A stretch of 64,000 nucleotides of DNA from a virus. Taxonomy: Duplodnaviria > Heunggongvirae > Uroviricota > Caudoviricetes. Below are positions 4,516 to 31,137 of the stretch, piece by piece (positions within the stretch are counted from its first letter, which is position 1; each line of letters begins with the position of its first letter). Position numbers and translations under genes: made by a program. A model generated the notes under the pieces. That model searched no databases. It saw only the letters and a program-made list of their open reading frames with translations, and was not told where the DNA came from. The stretch covers positions 125,430-189,429 of the IMG/VR virus record IMGVR_UViG_3300029305_004950. One strand, given 5' to 3'.

Positions 4516-6774
4516 ATGAATGTAGCTGAATGGTTAGGAAAAGACAACCAACTTGGAATTGATATTTGGGAAAAGAAATATCGTCAAGATGATGAATCTT
4601 TTGACGAATGGCTAGATAGAGTAAGTGGTAAGGATGATGAAGTAAAACAGTTAATTCTTGAAAAGAAGTTTTTATTTGGTGGAAGAATTCTTTCAAATAG
4701 ACTACTTGATAGAAAAGCTACTTACAGTAATTGTTACGTTCTTCCTGCTCCTGAAGATAACATAGAAAGTATTTTTGATACTGCTAAGAACATGGCTAGA
4801 ACATATAGCTATGGTGGTGGTATTGGTTTTGATTTATCTAAGTTAGCTCCTAATGGTGCTAAGATTAACAATACCGCTAAGTATACTAGTGGTGCTATTT
4901 CATTTATGGATCTATACTCCATGGTTACAGGCTTGATTGGTCAGAATGGACGTAGAGGTGCTTTGATGTTATCTATGTCAGTATCTCACCCTGACATTGA
5001 GGAATTCATTAAGTGTAAGACAGATCTAGATAGAGTTACTAAAGCAAATATCTCTGTAAGAGTTTCTGATGATTTTATGAAAGCTGTTGTAAATGATGAA
5101 ATGTGGACTATGTCTTTTACAAGAGATGAAACTAAAGAAACTATTAGTAAAGAAGTTAAAGCTAAAGATTTATTCAGACTAATTTGTGAAACTAATCATA
5201 ACTATGCAGAACCTGGTCTACTATTCTGGGATACTGTATCTAATGGTAACTTACTAGAATTTGATAAGGATTTTAGTTATGCTGGTACTAATCCCTGTGG
5301 AGAAATGCCTCTACCTGCTGGTGGTGCATGTAATCTAGGTTCTATTAATCTAGCAGAATTTGTAGGTGAACCTTTTACAGATGATGCATATATTGATTAT
5401 ATAGATTTAGAAGAAACCGTTAGAATTGCAACTAGAGCATTAAATGAAGTTTTACATGAAGGTTTATCTAAGCATCCTCTAGACATTCAGAAAGAATCCG
5501 TTAACAATTGGAGACAGATTGGTCTTGGTGTTATGGGTATTTCTGATATGCTTATTAAGCTTGGTGTACGTTATGGTTCAGAAGAAGCATCTACAGTACT
5601 GTATAATGTAATGAAAACTATTGCATATGAATCTTTTAAAGAATCCTATAACTTAGCCGATAAGTATGGTTCTTATCCTAACTTTAAAAAGAATAAAGTC
5701 GTTCAGTCAGCATTTTATAAAAGATTAAATGTATTTACATCTAATAATAAGAAACTAGATAAACTAGCAAATTCTCAGTTACTAACTATTGCTCCTACTG
5801 GTACTCTTTCCACTATGTTAGGTATTAGTGGTGGTATTGAACCTATCTTTGCTAATTCCTATACTAGAACTACTCAAAGCTTACATGGAAATAACAATGA
5901 TGTAGTTTATAAAGTATATACTCCTATTGTAGAAGCATATATGAAAGCCAATGGTATAACTGATGAAAAGGATCTTCCTGATTACTTTGTAACTGCAAAG
6001 GATATCAATTGGAGAGAAAGAATCAATATGCAGGCTGCAGCTCAACATTGGATTGATGGTGCTATTAGTTCTACTCTTAATGTACCTGAAGATTTTACAG
6101 TTGAAGATGTAATGGAAGCATATATGTATGCTTGGAACGCTGGTCTAAAGGGTATCACTATGTTCCGTGATAACTGTAAGAGAGTAGCTATTCTAAATAC
6201 TGATAAACCTAAAGAAGAAGAAAAGTCTGTTATTGAACTAGCTGATAGTCTAGTCGGTAAGAGAAAAACTCTAACTACTGGTTGCGGTAGTTTACATTTA
6301 CAGGCATTCTTTGATAGACATACTGGTGAACTAAAAGAAGTCTTCTTAGCTAAGGGTTCTACTGGTGGCTGCAATAACTTCATGATTGGTTTATCTAGAA
6401 TGATTAGTCTAGCTGCTAAAAATGGTGTTTCTACAGCAGAAATTGTTGATCAGCTTAATAGTTGTGGTGTATGTCCTAGTTATGCAGTAAGAAGAGCAAC
6501 AAAGGGTGATACAAGTCCTGGTAGTTGCTGTCCTGTTGCAGTTGGTAAGGCATTGATTGAATTACAGAAGGAAATGAAAGATGAGATCAATCAATTTTCT
6601 TCTAATACTAAAAAAGAATCTGCTGTTCAAAAGAAAGTAGAGAAAAAAGTAGAGAAGACTAATGCTAATGTTGATCATTCTAAACCTATTAAGTGTCCAG
6701 AATGTGGAGAACCACTAAGCTTTACTAATGGATGTGACAGTTGTACTAACTGTGGTTATTCTACTTGTTCTTAA
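4516..6774 (+). CDS. nrdJ: adenosylcobalamin-dependent (class II) ribonucleotide reductase
   Basis: 752 aa. RNR active-site signature NPCGE...C.LGSINL, a G-Y...GGG glycine-rich block, and a C-terminal CxxC...CxxC zinc ribbon (CPECGEP...CDSCTNC) typical of NrdJ. Confidence 0.88.
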   Translation: MNVAEWLGKDNQLGIDIWEKKYRQDDESFDEWLDRVSGKDDEVKQLILEKKFLFGGRILSNRLLDRKATYSNCYVLPAPEDNIESIFDTAKNMARTYSYGGGIGFDLSKLAPNGAKINNTAKYTSGAISFMDLYSMVTGLIGQNGRRGALMLSMSVSHPDIEEFIKCKTDLDRVTKANISVRVSDDFMKAVVNDEMWTMSFTRDETKETISKEVKAKDLFRLICETNHNYAEPGLLFWDTVSNGNLLEFDKDFSYAGTNPCGEMPLPAGGACNLGSINLAEFVGEPFTDDAYIDYIDLEETVRIATRALNEVLHEGLSKHPLDIQKESVNNWRQIGLGVMGISDMLIKLGVRYGSEEASTVLYNVMKTIAYESFKESYNLADKYGSYPNFKKNKVVQSAFYKRLNVFTSNNKKLDKLANSQLLTIAPTGTLSTMLGISGGIEPIFANSYTRTTQSLHGNNNDVVYKVYTPIVEAYMKANGITDEKDLPDYFVTAKDINWRERINMQAAAQHWIDGAISSTLNVPEDFTVEDVMEAYMYAWNAGLKGITMFRDNCKRVAILNTDKPKEEEKSVIELADSLVGKRKTLTTGCGSLHLQAFFDRHTGELKEVFLAKGSTGGCNNFMIGLSRMISLAAKNGVSTAEIVDQLNSCGVCPSYAVRRATKGDTSPGSCCPVAVGKALIELQKEMKDEINQFSSNTKKESAVQKKVEKKVEKTNANVDHSKPIKCPECGEPLSFTNGCDSCTNCGYSTCS

Positions 6775-13489: not shown

Positions 13490-15019
13490 ATGGCGACTAA
13501 AAAGAATCTAACATATAACGAAGATAGTATTAAAGTCCAAGAATATCCTGATAATGTAAGATCTAATCCTACAGTCTATATCAGTAGTCTTGGTAAAGAA
13601 GGTAATACGCATCTACTAAGAGAAGTAATTGATAACTCTATTGATGAATTCCTAAATGGTTTTGGTAAAACAATTACAATTGAAATTTCCAATAAAAAAG
13701 GTGTATTTAGAGTAATTGATGAAGGTCGTGGTGTTCCTCCTAAATCTATTGAAAGAGCATTTACTACATTACATGCTTCAGGTAAATTCGATAAAGATAG
13801 TTATAGCACATCAGGTGGTCAGCATGGTCTTGGTAGTACATGTGTTAATGCACTTAGTAAGTATTTCCTTGTCATTACACATGAAGGTGGTCATGAATAC
13901 TCTCAAAGATTTGAATATGGTAAGAAAGTAACTGAACTAAAAGATTTAGGAAAGTCTGATAAGGTAGGTACTATTGTAGAGTTTTGTCCTGATGAATCTG
14001 TAATGGATACATTTGAGATTGACATTGAATCAGTCAAAGATGAATGTAAGATGAAGTCTTTTATCAATAAAGGACTTACTATCATTATTAAGGACATGGA
14101 TGAAAAGAAACAGGCTAAGTATTATCATAAAGATGGTATTGAGGAATACGTACAGTTAAATGCTAAGAAAGCTCTATTTAATCCTATTACATTCTCTACA
14201 TCAACTACTGTTAACAAGGCTAATAAAGAATTGAATGTAGAAATCGATTGTTCCTTTACTTATGATAACTCTACTGATCCTATCAATATTAAATCCTTCT
14301 GTAATTCCATTTATACTAGTGATGGCGGTACTCATGAAACTGGTTTTAAAACAGCTCTTACTAGTTTGATTAAAAAGTATATTGCTGATAATAACCTACT
14401 AACTAAAAAAGATGCAAATCTAGACATTACTGGTGATTCAGTTCAGGAAGGTGTAGTAGCAGTAGTATCTATCAAACATCCTCATCCGATGTATGATCAG
14501 CAGTCTAAGAAAAAGCTTAACTCTACAGAAGTTTCTGGTGCAGTAATGAAAGCAGTTAATGCAGAATTTAGTAAGTGGATTGAAACCCATGCTAAAGAAA
14601 TGAAAGTACTTTGTACTAAAGTAATTGAATCTGCAAAGGCTAACAGTGCTGCTAAGAGAGCTAAAGAACTAGCTAATAAGAAATCTGAAAATGGAATTAC
14701 TGCTGTTTCTGATCTATCAAAATTAGCTAACTGTATTTCTAAGAAACCTGAAGAATGTGAACTGTTTGTAGTTGAGGGTAATTCTGCAAGTTCAAGTGCT
14801 AGAAATGGTAGAGATAAGCAAACTCAGGCTGTTTATGCTCTAAGAGGTAAGATTCTCAATACTAACAATCTAGCTGAAACTAAGATTTTTGAAAATAAGG
14901 AACTATCAGATTTGATTTATATCTTAACTGGTAAGAAAACTGCAATTGGTAAGAATTTCAATGTTGAAGACATGAAGTATCATAAACTGGTAGCCTTGAC
15001 TGATGCTGACGATGACGGT
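13490..15019 (+). CDS. gyrB: type II topoisomerase ATPase subunit (GyrB/ParE-like), exon 1
   Basis: GHKL ATPase motifs EVIDNSIDE, GRGVP, GGQHGLGS; Toprim EGNSASSS and DADDDG. The reading frame hits a stop two codons after the conserved DADxDG motif; the downstream ORF supplies the rest (HIASLILGF...PPLY). Confidence 0.88.
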
Positions 15020-16310
15020 AAATGACACATTAAGTCTGCATCAGTGAGAAATTTTCTAACAATACATTAGTATTAATGTTAGGAGGTTTCATTCAAATGA
15101 AAAATGAAAAAGAAACTAAAGAAAGATATGCTTCTGGTATTGAAAATTGTAAAAAACAAGCTCAAAATCTTAAACAAAAAGCATCTGAAAAATTTTTAAG
15201 TAAAGTTTACGAACAAGTTGGTGATGATTATACTTTTCTGGAAACTTATGTAACGAGTAAAACTAAACTCTGGGTAATACATAATGTTTGTGGACATAAG
15301 TATAGAGTAACTCCAAATGAGTTTACTTCTCATAAAAGACGTTGTCCAAACTGTGCAAATAAAAAAAGAGTACTTAATACTGGAATAAAACCTCATACAT
15401 TAGAATCTATTATTGAAAGTGTAAAAGAATTATCTAATGACGAATATGAGGTAGTTAGTAATGAGTATGAAAATAATAAAGAAAAAATTTGGGTTAGACA
15501 TAAAACATGTAGTTATTCATACCTTGTTCGTTATAATGACTTTCAGCAAGGATATAGATGTCCTTTATGTGCTGACATGAATAAAAGTCAGAATAATTCT
15601 AAACCAATACAGGATATTAAAAGTGTTCTAGATTTTAATAAAATTGAGTATGAATCAGAAGTGTCATTTGAAGAATGTGTAGACAAACGTTTTCTTCCAT
15701 TTGATATATTGGTTTATACTGATAAAGTCAATGATGAATACTTTTTAATTGAGTATGATGGACAACAACATTCTGATCCTAATGCACAATTTGGAGGAAC
15801 TAAAGAAGAAAGACTTATTAGATTTGAGCTAACTCAAAAACATGACACTATAAAAAATGCTTTTTGTGAAGAAAACAGTATAAAACTTTATAGAATTTCT
15901 TATAAAGAAGATTTGATGAGCAAACTAAGAAGTATATTGGAAGAAAATAATCTAATTTGACTTGCAGTGAATGCCGTCTAAAAACCTAGTTAACTGCGGG
16001 AAACTATCAATAAACACTATTTACTAAACTAAGATAGTAATATACTTAGTGGCAATGGGTAACTCCAAAGATATAGTAAAAAGAATAGTGTTTGATACAA
16101 TCGACGCAACGAAGTATCCTACATTTAGTAAAAGATAGGATATGAGTTCAACGACTATCGAAACCAACTAACTTAATGTTAGTAATAAGGTAAGTTGAAA
16201 TACTTACACGAAGGGAGTAGAGTAGGGAAATGTAAATTACAAAGTACCGAAAAGCTAGGCTATACTAATTTAGTATAGAAAATATAGTCTAAATTATGCA
16301 AAGTAATTTG
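15020..16310 (+). mobile_element. group I self-splicing intron with homing-endonuclease ORF in the P1 loop
   Basis: Internal guide GCCGTC (15973-15978) complements the exon-1 end GACGGU with a terminal U-G pair. P-like element AACTGCGGGAAAC (~15992), R element GTTCAACGACTA (16146-16157), S element AAAATATAGTCT (~16279). The intron ends in G (16310), giving an in-frame join DADDDG|LHIASLILGF. Confidence 0.75.
15097..15960 (+). CDS. intron-encoded homing endonuclease candidate: two Zn-ribbon-like modules plus a PD-(D/E)xK (Vsr/DUF559-like) nuclease domain
   Basis: ATG at 15097 with TAGGAGG RBS. Duplicated W..H..C..Y.V....F....RCP.CA modules; C-terminal RFLPFDILVY...LIEYDGQQH resembles the restriction-endonuclease-like fold core. 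Confidence 0.55.
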   Translation: MKNEKETKERYASGIENCKKQAQNLKQKASEKFLSKVYEQVGDDYTFLETYVTSKTKLWVIHNVCGHKYRVTPNEFTSHKRRCPNCANKKRVLNTGIKPHTLESIIESVKELSNDEYEVVSNEYENNKEKIWVRHKTCSYSYLVRYNDFQQGYRCPLCADMNKSQNNSKPIQDIKSVLDFNKIEYESEVSFEECVDKRFLPFDILVYTDKVNDEYFLIEYDGQQHSDPNAQFGGTKEERLIRFELTQKHDTIKNAFCEENSIKLYRISYKEDLMSKLRSILEENNLI

Positions 16311-17135
16311 CTTCACATTGCAAGCCTTATCTTAGGATTTGTATATAGACATGCTAAACCCATTTTGGAAAAAGGTTACATGTATATTGCAATGCCTCCT
16401 CTTTATTCTATCATTGAAAGAAATAAGAAACGTTATTTCTTAAATCAAGAGGAATATGATGCATATATTGAGGAAAAGATTTTTGAAAACTATGTATTTA
16501 GTTGTAATGAGATAGGTTTAAATAAGACTAAAGCTAAAACCATTCTTAAGAATTTTGAAACTTACAAAAACAAAGTAAGTGAACTATCTACTAGTACAGG
16601 TATCAATATGTATTTAATTGATGATGTATGTGATTATTTACGTACTAATGAAAATGCAACAAGTAAGGATATTGTGAATTTATTAAAACAGATTGGTGAT
16701 TTTGAATTCTTTAAGAATGATGAAGGAAATTCTGAGATTAATGGTCTTTATGATAATAGCTTTGTAAATGCAGTAATTAAGGATTTAGTAAAGTCTGCTA
16801 AAAAAGCTAAGAAGATTCTAGAAGATCTTAGTATTCCTGAAGAAGTATTCATCAATGATTATCATCTATCAATTAAGAACTATCAAGACATGTATAACAA
16901 GGTTACACCTAAGTCCAGAAGTCGATTCAAAGGCTTGGGAGAAATGGATGCTAATGAACTTTGGGAAACTACTCTTGATCCTTCAGTTAGAAACATTATG
17001 CAAGTTGTACTATCAGATGAAGAAAAGACAGATGATACTATGGATACACTACTAAATTCTAATAGTAAGTATGCAGACAAACGTAAAGTATTCTTAATGA
17101 AAAATCAGCAAAAGATTAAGGAATTAGAAATCTAA
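16311..17135 (+). CDS. gyrB: type II topoisomerase subunit B, exon 2 (C-terminal)
   Basis: HIASLILGFVYRH...YMYIAMPPLY... matches the GyrB region following DADVDG(S)HI; the KGLGEMDANELWETTLDP block matches the GyrB C-terminus. Confidence 0.85.
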   Translation, partial: LHIASLILGFVYRHAKPILEKGYMYIAMPPLYSIIERNKKRYFLNQEEYDAYIEEKIFENYVFSCNEIGLNKTKAKTILKNFETYKNKVSELSTSTGINMYLIDDVCDYLRTNENATSKDIVNLLKQIGDFEFFKNDEGNSEINGLYDNSFVNAVIKDLVKSAKKAKKILEDLSIPEEVFINDYHLSIKNYQDMYNKVTPKSRSRFKGLGEMDANELWETTLDPSVRNIMQVVLSDEEKTDDTMDTLLNSNSKYADKRKVFLMKNQQKIKELEI

Positions 17136-18229: not shown

Positions 18230-18487
18230 ATGGAAAGCTTAAAGAATGTAATAGAAAATGAGCATATTTTTATAGTAGAAGTTGAAGAAGTTTTACAAAA
18301 GTTAGTTGCTATTAAAGCAGATAGTAAAGAAGAAGCATTAAAAAGAGCTAAAGAAAAATACAAAAATTGTGAACTTATCTTAAATGAAGAGGATTTTAAA
18401 GAAACTAGCTTTAAGATTTATGAATACAATGATCCTAGAGAAATCATAGAACTAGTAATCACAGCTTTAGCTAATAGAACTTGTTAG
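18230..18487 (+). CDS. hypothetical protein
   Basis: 85-aa ORF, AGAGGAG RBS. Confidence 0.5.
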   Translation: MESLKNVIENEHIFIVEVEEVLQKLVAIKADSKEEALKRAKEKYKNCELILNEEDFKETSFKIYEYNDPREIIELVITALANRTC

Positions 18488-18504
18488 AAAGGACTAATGA
18501 TGAA

Positions 18505-19530
18505 ATGACTATTGAAGAAATCAAAAATATGGTTAATGGTGAATCATACGATTTTCTAAGAACTAATCCACATCTTAAGGATAGAATCATTTTTCTTACA
18601 TTAGGTGGTAGCTATGCCTATGGTACAAATAATGAAAATTCAGATGTAGATGTTCGTGGTTGTGCTCTTAATAGTGTTAATGATATCCTCGGTATGTCAA
18701 ATTTTGAACAGGTAGTAAATACAACAACAGATACGACAATCTATAGTTTTAATAAATTGATTAAACTCTTAATCAGCTGCAATCCTAACACCATTGAATT
18801 ACTTGGTTGTAAACCAGAACACTATTTTTACATTACAGATATTGGTAAAGAACTAATAGACAATAGAAAAATTTTTCTTTCTAAAAAAGCAGTTGAGGAT
18901 TCTTTTGGTGGATATGCAACTCAGCAGCTTCGTCGTTTAGAAAATGCAATAGCTAGAGATAAACTATCACAGGAAGATAATGAAAGACACATTAGAAATT
19001 CCATGCAAAGATCTTTAAATCACTTTATTGATAAATATGGAATTTCTGATGGTAATGGTGTTGAACTCTTTATAGATAAAAGTAATCGTGATGATTTAGA
19101 TTGTGAAATTTTCTGTAAGATTTACCTTGACAAAATTCCAGCAAGAGATTTTACTGTTATGTTAAACTCTCTATCAAATGTAATTAGTAGTTATGGAAAA
19201 CTAAATCATAGAAATCATAAGAAAGATGATGCACATCTTAATAAACATGCAATGCATCTAATTAGACTGTATCTAATGGCTATTGACATTCTAGAAAAAG
19301 AAGAGATCAATACTTATAGAGAAAATGATATAGAATTTCTATTAAGTATTCGTAATGGAAGATATCAAAATGAAGATGGTACTTACCATAAAGATTTCTT
19401 TGATATTGTATCTGATTATGAAAAACGTTTAGTATATGCTAAAGAAAATTCTAGTCTTCCTATGGAGCCAAATATGGAACTTATTGAAGAATTTACAATA
19501 GATGTAAATAGGAGGTCATTAGATGTATAA
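18505..19530 (+). CDS. Pol-beta-superfamily nucleotidyltransferase (GS...D.D motif) with C-terminal helical domain
   Basis: LTLGGSYAYGTNNENSDVDVRG is the hG[GS]x9-13DhD signature (as in OAS/cGAS-like and minimal NTases). ATG at 18505 with AAAGGA RBS preferred over the track's TTG at 18481. Stop overlaps the start of the CCA enzyme gene. Confidence 0.55.
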   Translation: MTIEEIKNMVNGESYDFLRTNPHLKDRIIFLTLGGSYAYGTNNENSDVDVRGCALNSVNDILGMSNFEQVVNTTTDTTIYSFNKLIKLLISCNPNTIELLGCKPEHYFYITDIGKELIDNRKIFLSKKAVEDSFGGYATQQLRRLENAIARDKLSQEDNERHIRNSMQRSLNHFIDKYGISDGNGVELFIDKSNRDDLDCEIFCKIYLDKIPARDFTVMLNSLSNVISSYGKLNHRNHKKDDAHLNKHAMHLIRLYLMAIDILEKEEINTYRENDIEFLLSIRNGRYQNEDGTYHKDFFDIVSDYEKRLVYAKENSSLPMEPNMELIEEFTIDVNRRSLDV

Positions 19531-20866
19531 TGTCTCTTTCAATATTCCAGATAATGTGAATGTTATCTTAGATACTTTACATGATAATGGATATGAAGCA
19601 TATATAGTCGGTGGATGTGTTAGAGATAGTCTGTTAGGATTACAACCAAAAGATTGGGATATTTGTACTTCAGCACTTCCACCACAAATACTAGAAGTTT
19701 TTAATGATAAGCGTATAATTGAAACAGGTTTAAAACATGGAACAGTTACTATAGTTCTAGATGACGAACAGTATGAGATTACAACATATCGTACTGATGG
19801 AAACTATTCTGATAATCGACATCCAGATTCAGTAACATTTGTTAGTAACCTTAAAGAAGATCTTGCAAGAAGAGATTTTACTATAAACGCTATGGCTTAT
19901 AACAAACAAGATGGTTTGATTGACTATTTTAATGGTTATAAGGATTTAAAGAATGGTATAATTTCTTGTGTTGGAGATGCTAATGAACGTTTTAATGAAG
20001 ATGCGTTACGTATTATGAGAGCTTTACGTTTTTCTTCTAGATATGAAATTCCAATTGCAGAATCCACACAAGAAGCTATTCATAAAAATAAGGATTTACT
20101 TAAAAATATTGCCATTGAACGCATTAATAGCGAATTATGTAAATTGTTACTTGGTTATGGTGGATCCTATATTTTAGCAAACTATAAAGATGTGATTACA
20201 ACTATTATTCCAGAATTAAAACCTTGTATTGGATTTAATCAAAATAATCGTTATCATGAATACGATGTTTATGATCATATCAGACATGCAGTATACAATT
20301 ATGGAGGTTCGGATTTAGTAGTAATTATATCACTCTTACTTCATGATATTGGCAAACCTCATTGTTATACTGAAGACTGTAACGGAGGACATTTTTATGG
20401 TCATGGAGTAGTAAGTCATGATATAGCAGAGAAAGTATTAGACAATTTAAGATTTGATAATAAAACAAAACATGATGTTCTTGAATTAGTATTATACCAT
20501 GATTCAACTATTGAACCAACACCAAAAACAGTACGTAGATGGTTAAATAAAATTGGTGAAAAACAATTTTTAAGACTTCTTGATATTCGTGAAGCAGATA
20601 TGTTAGCACACTCCAAAGATACACAGAAGTCTAGATTAGAAAGAAATGATAAACTTAGAAAAATTTTAGCTGAAATAATCCAATCTAATCAATGTTTTAC
20701 TATAAAGGACTTAGCAATTAATGGTAAAGACATTATTGCTATGGGTGTACCTGAAGGTAAACGTATAGGTGAAATACTAAATACAGTCCTTAATGAAGTT
20801 ATTAATGAAACTATTGTAAATGAAAGAAAATTTTTATTAGATTACGTATATTATAATCTAGTATAG
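19523..20866 (+). CDS. cca: CCA-adding tRNA nucleotidyltransferase (class II NTase head + HD domain)
   Basis: YIVGGCVRDSLLGLQPKDWDICT (GGxVRD...D.D) and HD motif LLHDIGKP. Confidence 0.8.
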   Translation: MYNVSFNIPDNVNVILDTLHDNGYEAYIVGGCVRDSLLGLQPKDWDICTSALPPQILEVFNDKRIIETGLKHGTVTIVLDDEQYEITTYRTDGNYSDNRHPDSVTFVSNLKEDLARRDFTINAMAYNKQDGLIDYFNGYKDLKNGIISCVGDANERFNEDALRIMRALRFSSRYEIPIAESTQEAIHKNKDLLKNIAIERINSELCKLLLGYGGSYILANYKDVITTIIPELKPCIGFNQNNRYHEYDVYDHIRHAVYNYGGSDLVVIISLLLHDIGKPHCYTEDCNGGHFYGHGVVSHDIAEKVLDNLRFDNKTKHDVLELVLYHDSTIEPTPKTVRRWLNKIGEKQFLRLLDIREADMLAHSKDTQKSRLERNDKLRKILAEIIQSNQCFTIKDLAINGKDIIAMGVPEGKRIGEILNTVLNEVINETIVNERKFLLDYVYYNLV

Positions 20867-20880
20867 AAGGAGAACACATA

Positions 20881-23800
20881 ATGGCACAGAATGTAATTCA
20901 AAAGGATATTGTTGATATTCAAAAAGACAATATGCTTCAGTATATGATGTCTCTAATGTATGATAGAGCGATTCCTGATATTAGAGATGGATTAAAACCA
21001 GTACAGAAATTTATCCTTTGGAGTTGTTACAGTTCAGGTTTCTTTCCAAATAAACCCCATGTAAAGTGTGCTAAGATTGCTGGTGATGTTATTGCTAACT
21101 TCCATCCACATTCACTAGATGCAGCTTATGAAGCATTGTGTAGACTTGCTCAGACTCATTCTATGAATATTCCATTAATTGATTTTCATGGTGCATGTGG
21201 TTCTATTGATGGATCAGGCGCAGCAGCTCATAGATATTGTGTGACTGGTGATACCTTAATTAGTCTACCAAATGGTAAATTAAAAAGAATTGATGAACTA
21301 ATTGAAAATTCTAATGATGATTCAACTATGGATGTAGATTTTGAAGTATTAGATTTTAAAAATAATCCAGTACATGTTTCTAAATTCTTTAATTCTGGAA
21401 AACATGATATAATCAAGATTAAAACCAGTTCTGGTTGTACTATTAGAGGTAGTTATAATCATCCTATCTTGTGTTTATATAAAAATCCTACTGATGGTCT
21501 ACCAGAATTCAGATGGACAACTTTAGATAAAATTGAAACTGGATGTTATGCTGTTATAGCATCTAAATTCAATAATTCTTTTAATGAAACTATAAGTGAA
21601 GAAGAAAAGCTTAAAGCAATTTTCTTTGGTGGAATGGTTTCTGAAGGAGGTTTATCTAAAAATCAGAGATACTATAGAGTAAGTTTCTCCAATCAAGATA
21701 ATGAATACTATAATCTAGTGGAATCTGGATATAAAGTATATCTTGAAGAGAATAATCTAAGTAATTTGAATATTCGTATTAATCCAAATGCTCGTGGTGG
21801 AGTTAAAGAATTTTGTACTGAAGACAAAAATCTTCATAATTTAGTTAAAGAACAAATTGGTGAAGATGCTCATAATAAACAGATTCCTCCCTATGTTCTA
21901 AACTCTAATTTAGAAATTCAAAGATGGTTTTTAAAGGCACTTTTTGAAGGAGATGGAGGAGTAACATGTCGTTTAGATAAAAGAAGAAAAGATAATGTTA
22001 CTGGACATGTATTTTATTCTACTTCTTCAACAAAACTTTTGAATGAATTAAAAATTCTATTAATGAATTTTGGTATTAGAACTAAAGTTACTAAAGACAG
22101 ATCTAATTTTAAACTTACAATTTATTCTTTAACTGACATGAAAATTTTTAAAGAAAAAATAGGATTTTTAAGTGATAGAAAAAATAAAGTATTGAATGAA
22201 TTAGTAGAAAATAAAGAAATACAAATTACTAAGTCTTATGGTGTTTCTTCTTCAGATAAAATTCCATATCTTGCCGAATTCATTAGAAATAATAAACTTA
22301 GAAATACACATTATTTAAAGTCTCATAGCCTAAATTGTAAACAAGATATAGATAAACATAATGATGTAATTAAAGATTCTTTGAGTTATGAAGAATATTT
22401 TAAGCTTATGAGAAAACTTGAAGTTTTAGATTTATACCATTATGAAGAAATTATTGAAGTTGAAAGACTACCAGAAGAAGTAGTATATTCAATTAAAGTA
22501 GATTCTAATGATCATAGTTTTATTAGTAATGGTTTTATTAGTCATAATACTGAGGCAAAACTTAGTAAATATGGATTAGATATTCTTAGTGAAATCGATA
22601 AGGATGCTGTTGATTTTGAAAAGAACTATGATGTAACTAAAGATCAACCAACTGTTTTACCTGCAGTAATTCCTAATATCCTATTGAATTCTTCAATGGG
22701 TATTGCAGGTGGTTATGCTTCTTCAATTCCTCCACATAACATCAAGGATGTATGTAATACTGTATGTGAACTAATTGATAATCCTAATATGTCAGTTCAA
22801 GATGTAGCTAAGAAACTAGTTCCTGACTTTCCTACAGGTGGTATCTTATGTTCTAAGAAGGAAATTGAAAAAGCTTACATTACTGGTCAGGGTTCAGTAA
22901 AACTAAGAGGTAGAGCAACTATCAATAGAAATAAGAATAACACATCAGAAATTGTTATTACTGAAATTCCATTTATGACTACAATTGGTCCTCGTATGAG
23001 TGGCACATCTACTAATACTGAGGGTGGTTTGATTAATTCCATTGTAGCTAAGATTAAAGATGGTACAATTGATGGAATTAAGGATATTCACGATATTTCT
23101 GATAAGAATGGTCTATGTATTAAAGTTTTTATCAAGAAAGATTATGACCCTGATGTTATTCTAAATCAGTTATACAAGTTCACTCAGTTAGAATCTACTT
23201 TTAAGATCATTCTAGTTTGTAAGAATGGTAATTTCTTTAAGGTTTATAACATCAAGGAAATTCTAACTGAATGGATTGAATTCCGTGTATCTACTATTAG
23301 ACGTATCATTACACATGATATCAAGAAAGCTAAGTATCGTGAACATATTCTAGAAGGTCTATTAAAAGCATTAACTGATATCGATACTGTTATTAGTATC
23401 ATTAAGAAAGCTAATGGAAGAGCTGATGCTAAAGTAAAGTTAGTTAGGAAATATGGATTTACTGATTTACAGGTTGAAGCTATTCTTGACATGAAACTTT
23501 CTCAGTTAAACTCTCTAGATGGAAAGAAGCTAGAAGAAGAAAAACTAAGTAAGCAAAAAGAAATTCTAGAACTAAAAGAGAATTGGAAAGAATCCAATAT
23601 CTATGAAAGAATTAAGAAAGAACAGAAAGAATTTGCTAAAAAATATGGTAGTGAAAGAAAGACTACTGTAGAAGAGATTGATACTGATATTACTACTGAA
23701 GACATTATTGCTGATGAAGATACTTTGATTGTCATTACTCAGGGTAATTACATTAAGCGTATTTCAAATGAGTTTAGAACTCAGAAACGTGGTACTCAGG

Positions 23801-24696
23801 GTATTTCTATTGGTGATAACTCTATCACAGAAATGTTCTCTGCTTCTACTAAGGATCATCTACTATGTTTTACTAATACTGCCAGAGTCTATGATTTAAA
23901 AGCTTATGACATTAAAGAATCTAAGGATCTTAAAGCTAAGGGTTTAAGAATTGAAAATTATCTAAATCTAAAAGAAAATGAAACAGTTACTAACATTCTA
24001 TGTATCAATAATACACAGATGAATGATAATGAATCCTTCCTAGTTTTCGCTACTAAGAATGGTATGATTAAGAAAACTAAGTTAGAAGAATTCAATAACA
24101 TTCGTTCTACTGGTATTATTGCTTTGATGTTAAAGTCTGGTGATGAACTAGTTTCTGTAAAGTATATTGATACTAGTAAACCTATGCAAGATATCTTGAT
24201 TTCTACTAAAAATGCTCAGACAGTTAGATATGATCATGAAGAAATCAAAGAATTAGGTAGAAATACCTATGGTGTAATTGGTATTAATCTAGAAAATGAT
24301 GACCGTATTACAGATATGTGTATCATTGAAGATGACGAACAACTAATCTTCTTTGCTACTAAAAATGGTTTAGGTAAAACTATTCGTATTACTGATAATG
24401 TAGAAAAAGTTGATCCCAATACTAAAGAAAAAGTAATCATCAATGATGGTTTTCCTAGACTAAAACGCTCATCCAACATTAAAGGCAGACTATGCATGAA
24501 ACTAAAAGAAAATGACGAATTAGTTTCAATGGTAGCTATCAATAATGTAAATGACGAACTAATGATTGTTACTGATAGCAAACTATTAGTAGTCAATACT
24601 GAAGAATTCAAAGAACCTTTAAAGAGACCTACTTATGGTAAGAAATTAGTTAGTTTGACTAATGAAGACTATGTAAGAAAGGTGATTCTAAAGTGA
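20881..24696 (+). CDS. gyrA: type II topoisomerase subunit A (GyrA/ParC-like) interrupted by an in-frame intein
   Basis: The extein reads ...GSGAAAHRY|TEAKLSKYGLD, matching GyrA AAMRYTEARL around the catalytic Tyr. A C-terminal beta-pinwheel region is present. Extein is about 834 aa after removing the 437-aa intein. Confidence 0.88.
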   Translation: MAQNVIQKDIVDIQKDNMLQYMMSLMYDRAIPDIRDGLKPVQKFILWSCYSSGFFPNKPHVKCAKIAGDVIANFHPHSLDAAYEALCRLAQTHSMNIPLIDFHGACGSIDGSGAAAHRYCVTGDTLISLPNGKLKRIDELIENSNDDSTMDVDFEVLDFKNNPVHVSKFFNSGKHDIIKIKTSSGCTIRGSYNHPILCLYKNPTDGLPEFRWTTLDKIETGCYAVIASKFNNSFNETISEEEKLKAIFFGGMVSEGGLSKNQRYYRVSFSNQDNEYYNLVESGYKVYLEENNLSNLNIRINPNARGGVKEFCTEDKNLHNLVKEQIGEDAHNKQIPPYVLNSNLEIQRWFLKALFEGDGGVTCRLDKRRKDNVTGHVFYSTSSTKLLNELKILLMNFGIRTKVTKDRSNFKLTIYSLTDMKIFKEKIGFLSDRKNKVLNELVENKEIQITKSYGVSSSDKIPYLAEFIRNNKLRNTHYLKSHSLNCKQDIDKHNDVIKDSLSYEEYFKLMRKLEVLDLYHYEEIIEVERLPEEVVYSIKVDSNDHSFISNGFISHNTEAKLSKYGLDILSEIDKDAVDFEKNYDVTKDQPTVLPAVIPNILLNSSMGIAGGYASSIPPHNIKDVCNTVCELIDNPNMSVQDVAKKLVPDFPTGGILCSKKEIEKAYITGQGSVKLRGRATINRNKNNTSEIVITEIPFMTTIGPRMSGTSTNTEGGLINSIVAKIKDGTIDGIKDIHDISDKNGLCIKVFIKKDYDPDVILNQLYKFTQLESTFKIILVCKNGNFFKVYNIKEILTEWIEFRVSTIRRIITHDIKKAKYREHILEGLLKALTDIDTVISIIKKANGRADAKVKLVRKYGFTDLQVEAILDMKLSQLNSLDGKKLEEEKLSKQKEILELKENWKESNIYERIKKEQKEFAKKYGSERKTTVEEIDTDITTEDIIADEDTLIVITQGNYIKRISNEFRTQKRGTQGISIGDNSITEMFSASTKDHLLCFTNTARVYDLKAYDIKESKDLKAKGLRIENYLNLKENETVTNILCINNTQMNDNESFLVFATKNGMIKKTKLEEFNNIRSTGIIALMLKSGDELVSVKYIDTSKPMQDILISTKNAQTVRYDHEEIKELGRNTYGVIGINLENDDRITDMCIIEDDEQLIFFATKNGLGKTIRITDNVEKVDPNTKEKVIINDGFPRLKRSSNIKGRLCMKLKENDELVSMVAINNVNDELMIVTDSKLLVVNTEEFKEPLKRPTYGKKLVSLTNEDYVRKVILK
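21238..22548 (+). mobile_element. intein (437 aa) with LAGLIDADG homing-endonuclease domain at the GyrA catalytic-Tyr site
   Basis: Starts with Cys (CVTGDTLISLPNG) and ends ...SHN before +1 Thr. Blocks resemble the Mycobacterium GyrA intein (CITGDALVALPEG ... NHPLLCL ... HAFITNGFVSHN). Two LAGLIDADG motifs: FFGGMVSEGG and LFEGDGGV. Confidence 0.85.
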
Positions 24697-26220: not shown

Positions 26221-27410
26221 AGGTTACAATTCTTTAATAAAGGGGATGTTTTTATGAGAGTAAAAACAAAACCTAATGTTGATGTTGGAGTTACTTTCAC
26301 AAATAACGATGGTTTAGATTTTATAGTAGATGAGATAGTAGAAATAAAAAAGTATGAAAAAATGTGTAAAATCACATTTTTAGAAAGTGGATATTCAGCT
26401 ATAGTTGGTAGTAGTTCTATAACAAAAGGAAGTGTTAAAGATTACTATCAGATAACTATTCTTGGTGTTGCTTGTTTTGGTGATGCTAAAACAAATCCAA
26501 GGCATACTAAGCAAACATATAGAATTTATAAAAACATGTTACATCGTTGCTATGATGAAAAAAACAAAGACTATAATTCATATGGTGGTATTGGTGTTTC
26601 TGTTTGTTCTAATTGGTTGAACTATAACAATTTTCTAAATGACCTTTATGATATTGAAGGATTTGATTTTGAAAAATTTGAAAATGGTGAAATTAGTATG
26701 GACAAAGATAAGAAACAAAAATACATTCCTAAGAATGAAAGAATTTATAGCAAGGAAACATGTTGTTTCATATCTACTAGTGAAAATTCTACTATAAGAA
26801 ATTTCGAAAATAGTCTAAATCCAGAAAAAAGAAAAATTCTTATAACCTATCCAGATGGTAATACTGAAACAATAGATAGAACAGAATTAAAAATCTATTG
26901 TGAAAAAAAGGGTTTTACAAATCCAAACCATATTAGAAGAGTTTTAAGAAAAGAACGTAATTCTTACAAAAACATTAAATTTGAACTTGTAGACTAATGG
27001 GTTCTTCATTAACAAACCTCATGAACTTAAGGTAAGATCTTAAGGTGTGTTACTTATCGTATTAAGTAATGCTAACGGTATCAGTGGAATAAGGATAGTT
27101 TACTATCACGAAGCAGCTGACTAAGAGACTCTACGGTCCAGAAATGGATAGCAGACAATACCGTGCCAAGCTTCTCAAAAGAGATGAAGGTGTACAGACT
27201 ATCGAAACCAACTAGTTTTAAACTAGTAATAAGGTAAGTTGAAATACTTACACGAAGGGAGTAGAGTAGGATAAACAATCCGAAGGATGAGGATCTAGAT
27301 TGTTTCTAGATAAAAGATAGTCGAAAAATCACATAGAAATATGGTAGTGAAAACTACATGATTTTTGCGGTGGTATTCCCGTTCCTAGACGTGATGAAAA
27401 TAGCAAGAAA
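26221..27410 (+). mobile_element. group I intron interrupting the MoxR ATPase gene (boundaries approximate), with endonuclease ORF near its 5' end
   Basis: Core 27000-27400 holds an R-like GTACAGACTATCG (27192-27204) and an S-like AAAGATAGTCG (27313-27323). A 43-nt block AATAAGGTAAGTTGAAATACTTACACGAAGGGAGTAGAGTAGG (27228-27270) is identical to the gyrB intron at 16184-16226. Confidence 0.7.
26254..26997 (+). CDS. intron-encoded endonuclease-like protein (phage HNH/free-standing homing-endonuclease-associated DNA-binding motif)
   Basis: YRIYKNMLHRCYDEKNKDYNSYGGIGVSVCSNWLNYNNFLNDL matches the Y..W..M..RC......Y..YGGRGI.VC..W..F..F..D module common in phage HNH-family endonucleases. Confidence 0.55.
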   Translation: MRVKTKPNVDVGVTFTNNDGLDFIVDEIVEIKKYEKMCKITFLESGYSAIVGSSSITKGSVKDYYQITILGVACFGDAKTNPRHTKQTYRIYKNMLHRCYDEKNKDYNSYGGIGVSVCSNWLNYNNFLNDLYDIEGFDFEKFENGEISMDKDKKQKYIPKNERIYSKETCCFISTSENSTIRNFENSLNPEKRKILITYPDGNTETIDRTELKIYCEKKGFTNPNHIRRVLRKERNSYKNIKFELVD

Positions 27411-28352
27411 ATGATCAACGATTACACTACACATGTTAAAATGCAGCAGATTTTGGATAATGATACTAGAGGTATCAACACAATCCTCTTTATTGACGAG
27501 CTAAATAGATGTGAAGCAGCAGTGAATCAGGAACTCATGCAGTTGATTCTTGACCGTAGAATCAATGAAACGATTCTTCCTGATTCTTGTATTATTGTTG
27601 CAGCAGGTAACCCTGAGTATGACGATGATAACGACTATCAGGTTCAGGTTATGAACGACGCCATGAAGAATCGGTTTGTTAAGTATACACTTGAAGCTGA
27701 TGTAAAGGACTGGCTTAAGTGGGCATCTAACACAAAGGATGATAACAAAACTGGTACAGAAGCAATTGATTCTGACGTAATTGAGTTTATTGCAGAAATG
27801 CCTAATCTACTTCACGATCCTCATAGTAAAGAAGACATCAAGCCCACTCCTAGAGGTTGGGAACTTCTTTCTAAGGTAATGAGACAGATTAAGAATTACT
27901 ATCCTGAAGATTTTGAAAGTATGTTGTTTGAAGCAGCAAAGGGTGTAGTTGGTCAGACTCCTGCAACCCAGCTAATTGGTTTCCTGAGAGATAAGAAGAA
28001 TCCTATTACTTCTACTAAGGATATTTTCAAGTCTTCTGATAAGGAATTTAACAATAACGTACTTAACAAGATTAAGGGTGATACATCCACTAGACAGTTC
28101 GTTATCATTGATCGTTGCATTCGTTACATTAGCGAAAACATTAAGGAATTCAATGATAAGAAGACTGGTGAAAATAGCTGTAAGAGATTCATTGAAGTAT
28201 GTAAGGTACTTCCCAAGGACATCATGGTTGGCGTTCTAAAGAACATTGGTGTTAATCATAAGAATATTCATGATACTTTTACTAAGTATGATGACTATAT
28301 GGATCTATTCTTTGATACCAATAAGAAGACTATGACTGCGGCAAACATCTAA
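27411..28352 (+). CDS. MoxR/AAA_5-type ATPase, exon 2 (Walker B / sensor region to C-terminus)
   Basis: ILFIDELNRCEAAVNQELMQLILDRR...IIVAAGNPEYDD matches the MoxR vlLaDEiNRa...ATqNP pattern. The frame is open upstream to 27351, so the true 3' splice site lies between about 27351 and 27411. Confidence 0.75.
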   Translation: MINDYTTHVKMQQILDNDTRGINTILFIDELNRCEAAVNQELMQLILDRRINETILPDSCIIVAAGNPEYDDDNDYQVQVMNDAMKNRFVKYTLEADVKDWLKWASNTKDDNKTGTEAIDSDVIEFIAEMPNLLHDPHSKEDIKPTPRGWELLSKVMRQIKNYYPEDFESMLFEAAKGVVGQTPATQLIGFLRDKKNPITSTKDIFKSSDKEFNNNVLNKIKGDTSTRQFVIIDRCIRYISENIKEFNDKKTGENSCKRFIEVCKVLPKDIMVGVLKNIGVNHKNIHDTFTKYDDYMDLFFDTNKKTMTAANI

Positions 28353-28471: not shown

Positions 28472-29641
28472 TTGACTGATAAAGAATTGGAATTTGTAAA
28501 AAAGTTTCTAGATTTTAAAGAAGCTACTGAAAACAGTTACTACTATGATCGTTATATAACACCAAGTGATGTTATGAAGTTTTTACAACCAGATGCAAGA
28601 AGAAACTATAAAGATGCTTGTAACATACTTTCTTATGAAGATAGAATAGATTTAGCAAAAATCTATCTAGAAAGAATAGTAAGTATGACATTTAGTAACA
28701 ATTTTGGTTACTATAAAAATAGTCATAATAGTAATAAAGGTTACTATGAAACGATGTTATCCAATAGTGGAATTGACTGTTATGTTGATGTAGCTAAAAC
28801 AAATGAAGAAGGTTTTCCATTAGAGTTCAACAAGAAAAATGAGAACTTTTTCTATATCTTCTTAGATGGTCTCTATAAGTATTGGGATAAGCAGTTAGAA
28901 TACTATAAAAACAATCAACAAGAAGCTGTAGAGATTATGTTTGAATCTCAATGTAATGGTACTTGGTTTTACTATAACCATTTCAACTATAACTTCCTAA
29001 AAGTATATCTAGAATATCTGAAATCTAGAGGATTTAAGATTAACATCTTTGAGCTTTTCAATAAGAAACTCAAAAGAGTTATAAAAAGTATGGATAAAGG
29101 TTTAGCACATTATACTAAATCTTATCTATTTGAAAGTTTAGCTATAATCTTTGATTTCTATAATGCTATTCTAGATATCTATGGAGAAGATAATGAAAAA
29201 GTAATCAATAAGCTACAGAACAATCTAATCACTATTTTCAAAGATGAAATAGAAACTGAGAAATTTGGTTTCATGAATACTTTCTTATACACAAAGAGGT
29301 GGACTAACAATAGTAAGAATAGAAGTTCTGAATCAACTAGTGATGTAGTTCATTTCTGGGAGTATGTTTACAATAATGAACTAAATCCTACTTTAAAACG
29401 TATCTTCTTGAATGCAATAATTCATACTTGGAATAAGTCACCTATTCCAAAAGTAAGAAACTCAATGCAGTTACTAGTGGATTTAGCAACTTATAAATAT
29501 GATGGAAGATCAGGATTTCCATACCATAATCAAAGATTGTTCTATAATGACATAATTGCAAATGCAAACATGCTAAAGAAATCTGTTAAATCTATACTAT
29601 TTTCTAAAGCAATTCTAGAAGAAGGAGGTTTATTTCTATAA
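28472..29641 (+). CDS. hypothetical protein (389 aa) between the ATPase and VWA genes
   Basis: TTG start with AAAGGAGA RBS. Confidence 0.5.
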   Translation: MTDKELEFVKKFLDFKEATENSYYYDRYITPSDVMKFLQPDARRNYKDACNILSYEDRIDLAKIYLERIVSMTFSNNFGYYKNSHNSNKGYYETMLSNSGIDCYVDVAKTNEEGFPLEFNKKNENFFYIFLDGLYKYWDKQLEYYKNNQQEAVEIMFESQCNGTWFYYNHFNYNFLKVYLEYLKSRGFKINIFELFNKKLKRVIKSMDKGLAHYTKSYLFESLAIIFDFYNAILDIYGEDNEKVINKLQNNLITIFKDEIETEKFGFMNTFLYTKRWTNNSKNRSSESTSDVVHFWEYVYNNELNPTLKRIFLNAIIHTWNKSPIPKVRNSMQLLVDLATYKYDGRSGFPYHNQRLFYNDIIANANMLKKSVKSILFSKAILEEGGLFL

Positions 29642-31137
29642 TGGCAGCTAAAGTTAGTACTAAGAATACTAGTTTAGAAGACATGAATGTAGAAGAACTT
29701 AAGAAAAGATGCTTAGAATGTGTTAACAACAAGGATCTTAATACTGCAACAAGATACTTTAAAGAGTACATTGAATTGATCATCTTCAATCTATTGATTT
29801 CAGATCACTTCTTTGGTACTTTCATTATCCATATGCAAAGAGAAATTCGTTATGATTTCTATGCACCTGCAGGTGTAACTATCAAAAAAGGTTCTCCATT
29901 ATTGGTAATAAATCCTGCTCTACTACTAAGATATACTCATAAAGAAGTTAAAGCTATTCTAAAACATGAGGTTTATCATCTACTTCATTTCCATCTTCTA
30001 AGAAGTAAAGAGAATAACAATCGTTTTGATAGCTATATTGAGAATATCGTTATGGACGTTGCTATCAACCAGTTCATTCCAGAAATTCCTGATGAATGTG
30101 TTACGTTTGACAATTTCTGTAAACAGTTTAAACTAGATCCTTACAGAGTATCTCGTAAAGAATCTTTTGAGTATTACTTAGAACTAGTAAAGAATAGTGA
30201 TGTATACAAAAAAGATTCTGAACAGTATAAGCAAATGATGAAGGATATTCAGGATATTCTTGATCAGCTTAATGAAAGTATGGGTCAGAATGGTAATGGT
30301 TCTGGTAGTGGCTCTGGATCTGGTGATGGTAAAAATGGTAAAGCTTCTGGAAATGGTTCTGGAAATGGTGGAAAATCCATTCAGGAAATGTTAGATGAAA
30401 TTCTAGATAAGAAATATCCTATTGATCATTCTATCTGGAAAGAATCTGATAGTTCCGATGTTCAGAACATCAAGGAGATCGTTAAGCATATGGTAAATGA
30501 AGCAATCAAGAATTGTGGTAATGTACCTGGCGATCTACAAGAGCTAATCAATAAGATTAATGAACCTACTATCATTAAGTGGCAGGATGAACTAAAGAGA
30601 CTTGTTGGTTCTGTTAAGTGTCCTTATAAACTTACTCCTCTAAGAAGACCTAGAAGACAGCCTGATAGAATGGATCTTAAGGGTAAAATGTCTGATAGAA
30701 AAGTTAAAATCGCAGTTGCTATTGATACTTCTGGTTCTATGGGTGAAAGAGAACTTCAGTTTGTATTCTCTGAAATCTTTAAGATTCTAGAATTGGTTAA
30801 GTTTGAAATGACAATCATTGAATGTGATTATAACGTACAGAGAGTTTATAAGGCTAAGAACCTGCAAGAAGTTGACATGAATGTCAAGGGACGTGGAGGT
30901 ACAGCATTTACACCTGTCTTCAAATATCTTAAGGAAGAAATGCGTCAACAAGATAAACCTGACTTACTGGTTTATTTCACTGACGGATGGGGCGAGTCTT
31001 GTCTTGACGAAAAGTATCATATTAGTAGTAGTACCAAACTAATGTGGGTATTAACAGGACGTAAGAAAGATTTATCATGTTCTGGACATGGTGCTTGGAC
31101 TAATAAGATCAAAGAACTTAAGATGAACGAAAGATAA
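29641..31137 (+). CDS. VWA-domain protein with N-terminal HExxH putative metallopeptidase domain (DUF2201-like MoxR partner)
   Basis: HEVYHLLHFH motif; Gly/Ser/Asn linker; VWA MIDAS region KVKIAVAIDTSGSMG...FTDGWGES. Confidence 0.75.
   Translation: MAAKVSTKNTSLEDMNVEELKKRCLECVNNKDLNTATRYFKEYIELIIFNLLISDHFFGTFIIHMQREIRYDFYAPAGVTIKKGSPLLVINPALLLRYTHKEVKAILKHEVYHLLHFHLLRSKENNNRFDSYIENIVMDVAINQFIPEIPDECVTFDNFCKQFKLDPYRVSRKESFEYYLELVKNSDVYKKDSEQYKQMMKDIQDILDQLNESMGQNGNGSGSGSGSGDGKNGKASGNGSGNGGKSIQEMLDEILDKKYPIDHSIWKESDSSDVQNIKEIVKHMVNEAIKNCGNVPGDLQELINKINEPTIIKWQDELKRLVGSVKCPYKLTPLRRPRRQPDRMDLKGKMSDRKVKIAVAIDTSGSMGERELQFVFSEIFKILELVKFEMTIIECDYNVQRVYKAKNLQEVDMNVKGRGGTAFTPVFKYLKEEMRQQDKPDLLVYFTDGWGESCLDEKYHISSSTKLMWVLTGRKKDLSCSGHGAWTNKIKELKMNER

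Follow-up and report, generated by a model that had tools for sequence, protein, structure and literature searches.

A GyrA precursor interrupted behind its catalytic tyrosine

The DNA considered here is a 64-kb window (the whole stretch analysed, 64,000 nucleotides, positions 125,430 to 189,429 of the IMG/VR virus record IMGVR_UViG_3300029305_004950), and its subject is a phage gene for a gyrase A-like subunit (gyrA) that is interrupted by an intein; coordinates of the gyrA precursor and the intein are window positions. The open reading frame (ORF) at 20881-24696 (+ strand, 3,816 nt) is fully open and encodes a GyrA precursor of 1,271 residues. Its N-extein (20881-21237, +, 119 residues) is preceded by the Shine-Dalgarno site GAAGGAG, aligns approximately with residues 19-129 of the solved GyrA 8s7k and ends at the catalytic tyrosine in …GSGAAAHRY, the stretch AAAHRY matching AAMRY of that structure. 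A class-1 intein of 437 residues follows (21238-22548, +, precursor codons 120-556), recognized by Pfam and NCBIfam profiles, a match to the Mycobacterium xenopi (Mxe) GyrA intein, a structural model and an alignment of relatives. The C-extein (22549-24696, +, 715 residues and a stop codon) starts with Thr+1 (TEAKLSKYG…) and supplies the remainder of DNA_topoisoIV along with the beta-pinwheel repeats at the C terminus. By calculation the precursor weighs 144.8 kDa, spliced GyrA 94.3 kDa and the intein 50.5 kDa; a first-pass annotation of this DNA had predicted about 95 kDa for the spliced product and about 50 kDa for the intein, in good agreement.

On the precursor, the Pfam domain DNA_topoisoIV (PF00521) was matched at E = 6e-111, with the insert splitting the match into two stretches, and DNA_gyraseA_C (PF03989) at E = 4e-30. 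When the 119 and 715 extein residues were joined in silico, the resulting 834-residue protein matched solved GyrA structures at E = 4e-134, and the junction aligned without a gap (sgAAAhRYTEAkLskygl against dppAAMRYTEARLtplam of a solved GyrA), so that the catalytic tyrosine is the last residue ahead of the insert; the DNA of the fused, intein-less junction reads GCAGCAGCTCATAGATAT/ACTGAGGCAAAACTTAGT (here and below, a slash in a sequence marks a junction). The two GyrA equivalog models of NCBIfam gave 717 and 696 bits against cut-offs of 902 and 877, both above the ParC models, and the GyrA-box region of the spliced protein reads QKRGTQG, for which the canonical form is QRRGGKG. A DNA_topoisoIV domain with its catalytic tyrosine, together with the C-terminal beta-pinwheel, identifies the predicted product as the A subunit of a type IIA topoisomerase, either a true gyrase or a topo IV-like enzyme.

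Intein boundaries and splicing residues

Translation of 21238-22548 gives 437 codons and zero stops, beginning with CVTGDTLISLPNG and ending with DHSFISNGFISHN, and the flanking …GSGAAAHRY and TEAKLSKYG… lie in the same ORF. The intein is laid out as the N-terminal half of a Hint domain (residues 1 to ~110), a LAGLIDADG endonuclease (~118-310), a helical region (~313-397) and the C-terminal half of the Hint domain (~400-437), and its key residues are C1, S72/H75, E136, K214, D239, D425/H426, H436 and N437. The class-1 nucleophile, precursor Cys120 (C1 of the intein), is kept in all relatives with the N terminus present. Block B (T/S-x-x-H) reads S72-Y-N-H75, with H75 nearly invariant in gyrA-family relatives and with serine, which the gyrA family has most often at that position, in place of the textbook threonine; block F carries the pair D425/H426, and the C terminus ends …GFISHN, a His-Asn that is followed by Thr+1 of the extein. 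All residues required for class-1 splicing are thus present in the predicted protein. At the level of profiles, NCBIfam intein_Cterm scored 23.4 bits against a cut-off of 15.6, intein_Nterm was likewise above its cut-off, and Pfam Intein_splicing (E = 3.5e-13) covered residues 8-437 while LAGLIDADG_3 (E = 1.3e-13) covered residues 227-309. Both splicing halves were matched by the Mxe GyrA intein (PDB 1am2) at E = 3e-27, and the insert aligned to positions 117-537 of the NCBIfam 'intein-containing GyrA' model at 1e-68.

The first-pass annotation had placed a 437-residue intein at exactly these coordinates, and the stop-free translation and the Pfam and NCBIfam matches, which lie far beyond chance, bear it out. 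The other particulars that it had read also hold: the Cys start and the HN end before Thr; the motifs NHPILCL (intein residues 74-80), FFGGMVSEGG (128-137) and LFEGDGGV (234-241); insertion behind the catalytic tyrosine, with AAAHRY/TEAKL aligned to AAMRYTEARL; kinship with the mycobacterial (gyrA-a) inteins, for which the Mxe match and the insertion site common to the relatives speak; and retention of a two-motif LAGLIDADG domain, with both E136 and D239 present.

The intein has a GC content of 25.8%, below the 31-36% of the exteins. We dropped this anomaly as evidence, as 25.8% falls inside the range of 23-35% found for 2-kb windows along the stretch. No further intein was detected in the window when a family hidden Markov model was run against all six-frame ORFs of at least 60 residues; the model was built from one intein family, and unrelated families could escape it.

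A nested double-motif endonuclease

Two LAGLIDADG motifs lie within the intein. The first (…LKAIFFGGMVSEGG…; 21589-21651, +) carries the catalytic Glu136 and corresponds to helix 121-136 of the structural model, and the second (…FLKALFEGDGGV…; 21913-21972, +), inside the LAGLIDADG_3 match, carries the catalytic Asp239 and corresponds to helix 225-239. Both end in an acidic residue and glycine (…MVSE136-G and …FEGD239-G). In an alignment of the intein with 28 database relatives, E136-G137 of the first motif was nearly invariant and D239-G240 of the second was conserved, C1, S/T72, H75 and K214 were likewise kept in nearly all 28, and H436-N437 was kept in every relative with the C terminus present.

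An AlphaFold2 model built with the 28 relatives as input (predicted local distance difference test, pLDDT, 90.3; predicted template modelling score, pTM, 0.90) consists, in order, of N-terminal beta strands (1-108), two alpha-beta-beta-alpha-beta-beta-alpha units whose first helices are the LAGLIDADG motifs, a helical region (313-397) and C-terminal strands (400-436). Endonuclease-bearing inteins were the top Foldseek matches in the PDB (TliVMA at 7e-22, PI-PfuI, PhoVMA, PI-TkoII and PI-SceI); the Mxe GyrA intein was matched over the Hint part (TMt 0.85), and the centre of the model was matched by monomeric LAGLIDADG enzymes of the I-DmoI type (TMt 0.72-0.77). In the model, the Hint fold is built by the N- and C-terminal segments and a pseudo-dimeric, double-motif LAGLIDADG fold is nested within the intein, and from its sequence the homing endonuclease is apparently intact.

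An empty allele and a discordant distribution

A sister jumbo phage (IMGVR_UViG_3300031555_004294, 299,070 bp; locus L008 below) encodes an intein-less GyrA of exactly 834 residues that is 84% identical to the joined exteins and reads …GSGAAAYRYTEARLSKYGL… across the site. The extein DNA of the two phages (2,505 nt each) aligned ungapped at 78.9% identity, and the empty site of the sister reads GCAGCAGCATATCGTTAT/ACCGAAGCAAGACTTAGT. The insertion is therefore in-frame and precise relative to an intein-less homologue. The first-pass annotation had staked its proposal on the flanks forming a continuous GyrA once the 437 residues are removed; joined, they are gap-free, and they are collinear codon for codon with the 834-residue sister allele.

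No insertion at the gyrA site was found in the 87 other GyrA relatives surveyed, whether viral (0/25), metagenomic (0/61, counting loci with a readable junction, whose N-exteins are 42-57% identical) or from the sister phage (0/1). An exhaustive phmmer search of 1.84 billion cluster representatives with the intein gave 1,917 matches at E ≤ 1e-3, 58 of them at E ≤ 1e-30. Among the top matches of two database searches, all those examined were hosted by GyrA, and every aligned relative that spans the junctions is inserted at …RY/C…HN/TE…. The top phmmer match, P0039, is 45-46% identical across all 437 residues, whereas its GyrA exteins are only 31% identical, so that similarity of the intein does not track similarity of the host gene. 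Such discordance argues for transfer at some point, as expected of a horizontally moving element, and sporadic spread together with intein/extein discordance fits horizontal homing. A scan of IMG/VR with intein peptides found no close copy of the intein, and megablast of the gyrA gene against 50,697 phage records gave zero matches.

As a separate observation, some related GyrA N-extein matches (L034 and L035, on IMG/VR 3300026549 contigs, and L101-L109) stop at about query residue 77-83 in a short ORF. Some of these may be contig ends, and others could be gyrA genes that introns interrupt elsewhere, further upstream, in the way reported for gyrA of phage AR9.

We conclude that the insert is very probably a mobile class-1 intein of the gyrA-a insertion-site family, with an apparently intact double-motif LAGLIDADG endonuclease, in the GyrA-like subunit of a jumbo phage. 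Its boundaries, homology, fold and conserved catalytic residues, its precise insertion relative to an empty allele and its sporadic and discordant distribution carry this conclusion. Several points weigh on the other side. The empty site of the sister phage differs at 8 of 36 nt around the junction, so that the endonuclease may or may not cut it. The exception model NF038098 (GyrA_w_intein) of NCBIfam scored 835.6 bits, far under its cut-off of 1,850 bits, which indicates that the protein resembles the narrowly defined (sub)family of that model and lies outside it. The five metagenome copies of the gene that were retrieved are nucleotide-identical, which makes them one phage strain sampled several times and offers no population variation by which to gauge purifying selection on the intein. 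The fold is that of a predicted model, and splicing and DNA cleavage by the intein are activities that we infer by homology.

It is possible, if doubtful, that the intein splices while its endonuclease is dead or domesticated, and that the element is now a vertically inherited, fixed passenger with no active homing. The identity of all metagenome copies and the failure to find a second phage with a closely related copy would agree with this, as would the decay after fixation that the homing cycle model predicts, the seemingly degenerate first LAGLIDADG motif of GyrA inteins in Staphylococcus jumbo phages (KKWGEILS, without the acidic-Gly) and the low GC content of the intein, which could reflect relaxed constraint. 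However, E136, D239, K214 of block D and the full double alpha-beta-beta-alpha-beta-beta-alpha fold are retained with high model confidence, the empty allele of the sister phage means that the element is not fixed in the clade, and the discordance between intein and extein identities again speaks for past transfer.

A group I intron in gyrB

The gene for the partner subunit is interrupted as well. Exon 1 of gyrB (13490-15019, +, 510 residues) ends …LTDADDDG at the Toprim acidic motif, where the frame continues with a lysine codon and stops, and GyrB resumes 1.29 kb on as …LHIASLILGFVYRH… in exon 2 (16311-17135, +, LHIASLILGF… to the stop codon). GyrB of the sister phage (L008 1591-3942) is uninterrupted, has 783 residues and reads …DADDDGLHIASL… across this point, which fixes the limits of the insert at 15020-16310 (+, 1,291 nt). 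The insert combines an HNH-type endonuclease ORF with a ribozyme core at 15961-16310. The last nucleotide is U in the 5' exon and G in the insert (…GGU/…UUUG/), and base pairing of the exon end GACGGU with GCCGUC (15973-15978) can give P1, which puts the ORF (15097-15960; the mechanically called ORF starts at 15076) in the P1 loop. This ORF has its own AGGAGG ribosome-binding site and matches PHROGs of phage HNH, homing and intron-encoded nucleases (best 1.5e-53) and a treble-clef zinc-finger family of Pfam. The 350-nt 3' segment of the insert folds better than shuffled sequence (z = -2.8) and resembles gaps left unannotated in other jumbo phages; the gap in Bacillus phage Internexus is flanked by two coding sequences annotated 'DNA gyrase subunit B', the first of which also ends DADDDG, and the Internexus gyrB intron is homologous to that of the window, at the same site and without an ORF. 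An alignment of four jumbo phages showed largely conserved P (AACUGCGGGAA), Q (AAUCGACGCAACGAAG), R (GUUCAACGACUAUCGAAA) and S (AAUAUAGUC) elements, defined by the Cech/Michel conventions for group I introns, in which R and S (GACUAU/AUAGUC) form P7 and P and Q (UGCG/CGCA) form P4.

The Rfam model Intron_gpI (RF00028) had no match in the window at the gathering threshold or in 14900-16450 at E ≤ 1, where Rfam returned two chance-level matches (pntA and sR5). With Rfam silent, four lines of evidence lead us to identify the gyrB insert as a group I intron: the intron-less sister allele, the nucleotides at the splice sites, P1 and the P/Q/R/S elements. A gyrB gene translated as two halves around a free-standing endonuclease gene, an arrangement that occurs in some T-even phage genes, was considered and rejected: exon 2 has no ribosome-binding site upstream, the sole ATG upstream of it falls inside the S element of the intron, and the ribozyme core is conserved. 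Two different classes of self-splicing element, each with an endonuclease of its own, thus interrupt catalytic motifs in both subunits of this type IIA topoisomerase.

That gyrB is interrupted too could mean that both subunits are casualties of invasion by selfish elements, in which case the gyrA insert would no longer splice, gyrA would be a pseudogene or an inactive fusion and the phage would rely on host gyrase. We consider this extremely unlikely, because the 3.8-kb gyrA frame is fully open with every class-1 residue in place, the Mxe GyrA intein, which splices efficiently, has the same Tyr-1/Thr+1 flanks, the exteins have stayed well conserved, with 84% of residues identical in the sister phage, and the gyrB intron retains its P, Q, R and S core elements as well as the U and omega-G splice-site nucleotides.

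Phage origin and genomic neighbourhood

The window has a GC content of 29%, zero tRNAs and zero Rfam families at gathering score, and its ORFs match PHROGs for ribonucleotide reductase, topoisomerase II large subunit, endolysin/amidase, a tail protein, several HNH endonucleases and families of unknown function. Fourteen contigs carry the exact GyrA precursor, and the longest of them measures 319,626 bp; together with the ORFs of phage families, this contig supports an origin in a jumbo phage. A 588-residue ORF at 49294-51060 had no match in phages by tblastn and was of no help in classification. Some features would suit bacterial chromosomal or plasmid DNA with a cellular gyrA-a intein instead: the GyrA is of bacterial type with a C-terminal beta-pinwheel, the megablast search of phage records came back empty, and the part of the window that was examined yielded neither capsid nor terminase genes. 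Such an origin is scarcely credible, however, given the many ORFs that match phage-only PHROG families (tail protein, endolysin and several of unknown function), the absence of tRNA and rRNA genes from the window, a gene order that agrees with a 299-kb viral contig of IMG/VR and a gyrB intron core that is homologous to the same-site intron of the Bacillus jumbo phage Internexus. The phage origin proposed in the first-pass annotation is accordingly borne out by the PHROG matches, the 319,626-bp contig and the viral sister contig, and we treat the intein as one carried by a jumbo phage.

Several neighbouring genes are worth recording in their own right. Between gyrB and gyrA (18230-20866, +) lie three genes that the sister phage lacks at the corresponding place (compare L008 4976-5644): a small DpnD/PcfM-like ORF, a nucleotidyltransferase of the RlaP family (18481-19530) and an enzyme of the CCA-adding/poly(A)-polymerase family with an HD domain (19523-20866). 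The set resembles a cassette for RNA repair or tRNA maturation that one of these close relatives has gained or the other has lost. Downstream of gyrA, a free-standing ORF of 247 residues (26254-26997, +) matches a phage HNH-endonuclease family (phrog_2081, 8e-47) and is a candidate for another mobile endonuclease gene in this replication-gene neighbourhood. It is followed by an AAA ATPase gene (27411-28352, +; phrog_1297, weak AAA_5) and by an ORF at 29641-31137 (+) with DUF2201_N metallopeptidase-like and VWA-like domains, for which the PHROGs label 'HNH endonuclease' appears misleading; the ATPase/VWA pair presumably resembles a MoxR/VWA-type module. Ribonucleotide reductase, a frequent target of inteins and introns, is encoded at 4516-6774 (+; 752 residues, Ribonuc_red_lgC and TSCPD domain) by an uninterrupted gene that has no intein.

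Predicted splicing, homing and significance

In the mechanism that we propose, gyrA would be translated as a 145-kDa precursor and the Hint domain would carry out the four standard steps: an N-S acyl shift at Tyr119-Cys120; passage of the thioester to the hydroxyl of Thr557 (+1); cyclization of Asn556, which would free the 50.5-kDa intein; and an O-N shift that would yield a native Tyr-Thr bond and restore the AAAHRY-TEAKL active-site loop of the 94-kDa GyrA. The Mxe GyrA intein splices efficiently. Homing would follow when the endonuclease of the free intein cuts an empty gyrA of a related phage during co-infection and recombinational repair copies the intein into it. With the insert seated directly behind the tyrosine that cleaves DNA, the precursor would be expected to stay inactive until spliced; an active unspliced enzyme with a 50-kDa domain beside that residue is implausible from its position, and it is a sound inference from the same position that topoisomerase activity depends on protein splicing.

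A further reading, which starts only from the insertion at a catalytic residue and from the fact that both subunits are interrupted, is that splicing of the intein is conditional (on redox state, temperature or DNA binding) and gates the phage topoisomerase, maybe jointly with RNA splicing of the gyrB intron. If true, conditional splicing would be a post-translational switch that times the topoisomerase, with both subunits maturing only under permissive conditions. We think this highly unlikely.

The value of the locus is modest. It adds a divergent, full-length and apparently endonuclease-competent intein to the gyrA-a family, the mini-intein of which from Mxe GyrA is widely used in protein engineering; the closest intein among about 15 billion proteins shows no more than 46% identity. 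The two phages offer a natural pair for homing tests in jumbo phages, one with both intein and intron and the other an 84%-identical sister with neither. The locus also strengthens the pattern of selfish splicing elements that invade replication enzymes at their most conserved catalytic motifs, the targets within this one enzyme being the catalytic tyrosine of GyrA and the Toprim DxDxDG of GyrB. For annotation, GyrA needs mature-peptide coordinates, and the two gyrB exons need to be joined over an intron that escapes Rfam.

Comparison with known systems

A gyrA-a intein with a LAGLIDADG domain at this exact site has already been annotated and published in Staphylococcus jumbo phages and is known in bacteria; the intein of the window is new and divergent, and a specialist would not be surprised by it. 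Searching INPHARED with tblastn recovered relatives of the intein in gyrA of the Staphylococcus jumbo phages Madawaska, MarsHill, Machias, PB50, PALS_2, S6, SA1 and DC4, and several Staphylococcus jumbo-phage gyrA records carry explicit 'intein' mat_peptide features. In MarsHill, the intein of gp228 lies between Y117 and T492 and has a LAGLIDADG domain, and gyrB of MarsHill-type phages is disrupted by introns, whereas AR9 has two introns in gyrA instead (Korn et al., bioRxiv 10.1101/2020.12.14.422802). The description of DC4 (PMC10638138) repeats the GyrA intein observation and reports a like failure of Rfam for Staphylococcus jumbo phages. The window thus shares with these phages (MarsHill gp228, Madawaska gp231, Machias gp238, DC4, PALS_2, S6 and PB50) a class-1 intein in a phage GyrA with Cys1, HN, Thr+1 and a nested LAGLIDADG domain, an identical insertion point (AAASRY/C…HHN/TEMRL in the two that were aligned) and a jumbo-phage host in which gyrB is also intron-disrupted. 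It differs from them in phage lineage and habitat, in sequence (inteins 26-28% and exteins 32% identical to those of the window) and in length, the Staphylococcus inteins having 373-374 residues against 437, a difference of 63-64 residues.

The endonuclease motifs differ too. In the Madawaska GyrA intein (L001 6001-7122), the first LAGLIDADG motif appears degenerate, without the terminal acidic-Gly, and the second (ELFKQDG) is kept; KKWGEILS of Madawaska stands against FFGGMVSEG of the window, where both catalytic acids are kept, a comparison that depends on the alignment. This suggests that the endonuclease of the Staphylococcus jumbo-phage inteins may be inactive, unlike that of the window.

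Outside phages, one survey (PMC4760082) has tallied 50 GyrA inteins across Actinobacteria, Aquificae, Chloroflexi and Proteobacteria. The intein of the window has in common with the mini-intein of Mycobacterium xenopi GyrA (PDB 1am2, 4oz6) and with full-length mycobacterial gyrA-a inteins the site after the catalytic tyrosine, the Tyr-1/Thr+1 flanks and the blocks CxTGD…, NHPxLCL and DHxFxxNGFxSHN; the Mxe intein (198 residues), however, has lost the endonuclease domain that the window intein retains, and its host is an actinobacterium rather than a phage. The closest relative found, P0039, comes from an ENA metagenome (ERZ27256887, a 5-kb contig of 31% GC) and resembles the window intein in its RY/C…HN/TE site, its length (436 residues) and its possession of both LAGLIDADG motifs, but it sits in a GyrA that is only 31% identical to that of the window. 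TliVMA (7qss), PI-PfuI (1dq3), PI-TkoII (2cw7) and PI-SceI (1lws) share an architecture in which a double-motif LAGLIDADG endonuclease divides the Hint domain (Foldseek E values of 7e-22 to 1e-11), and they differ in host protein and insertion site, in sequence (12-18% identity) and in their accessory DNA-binding regions.

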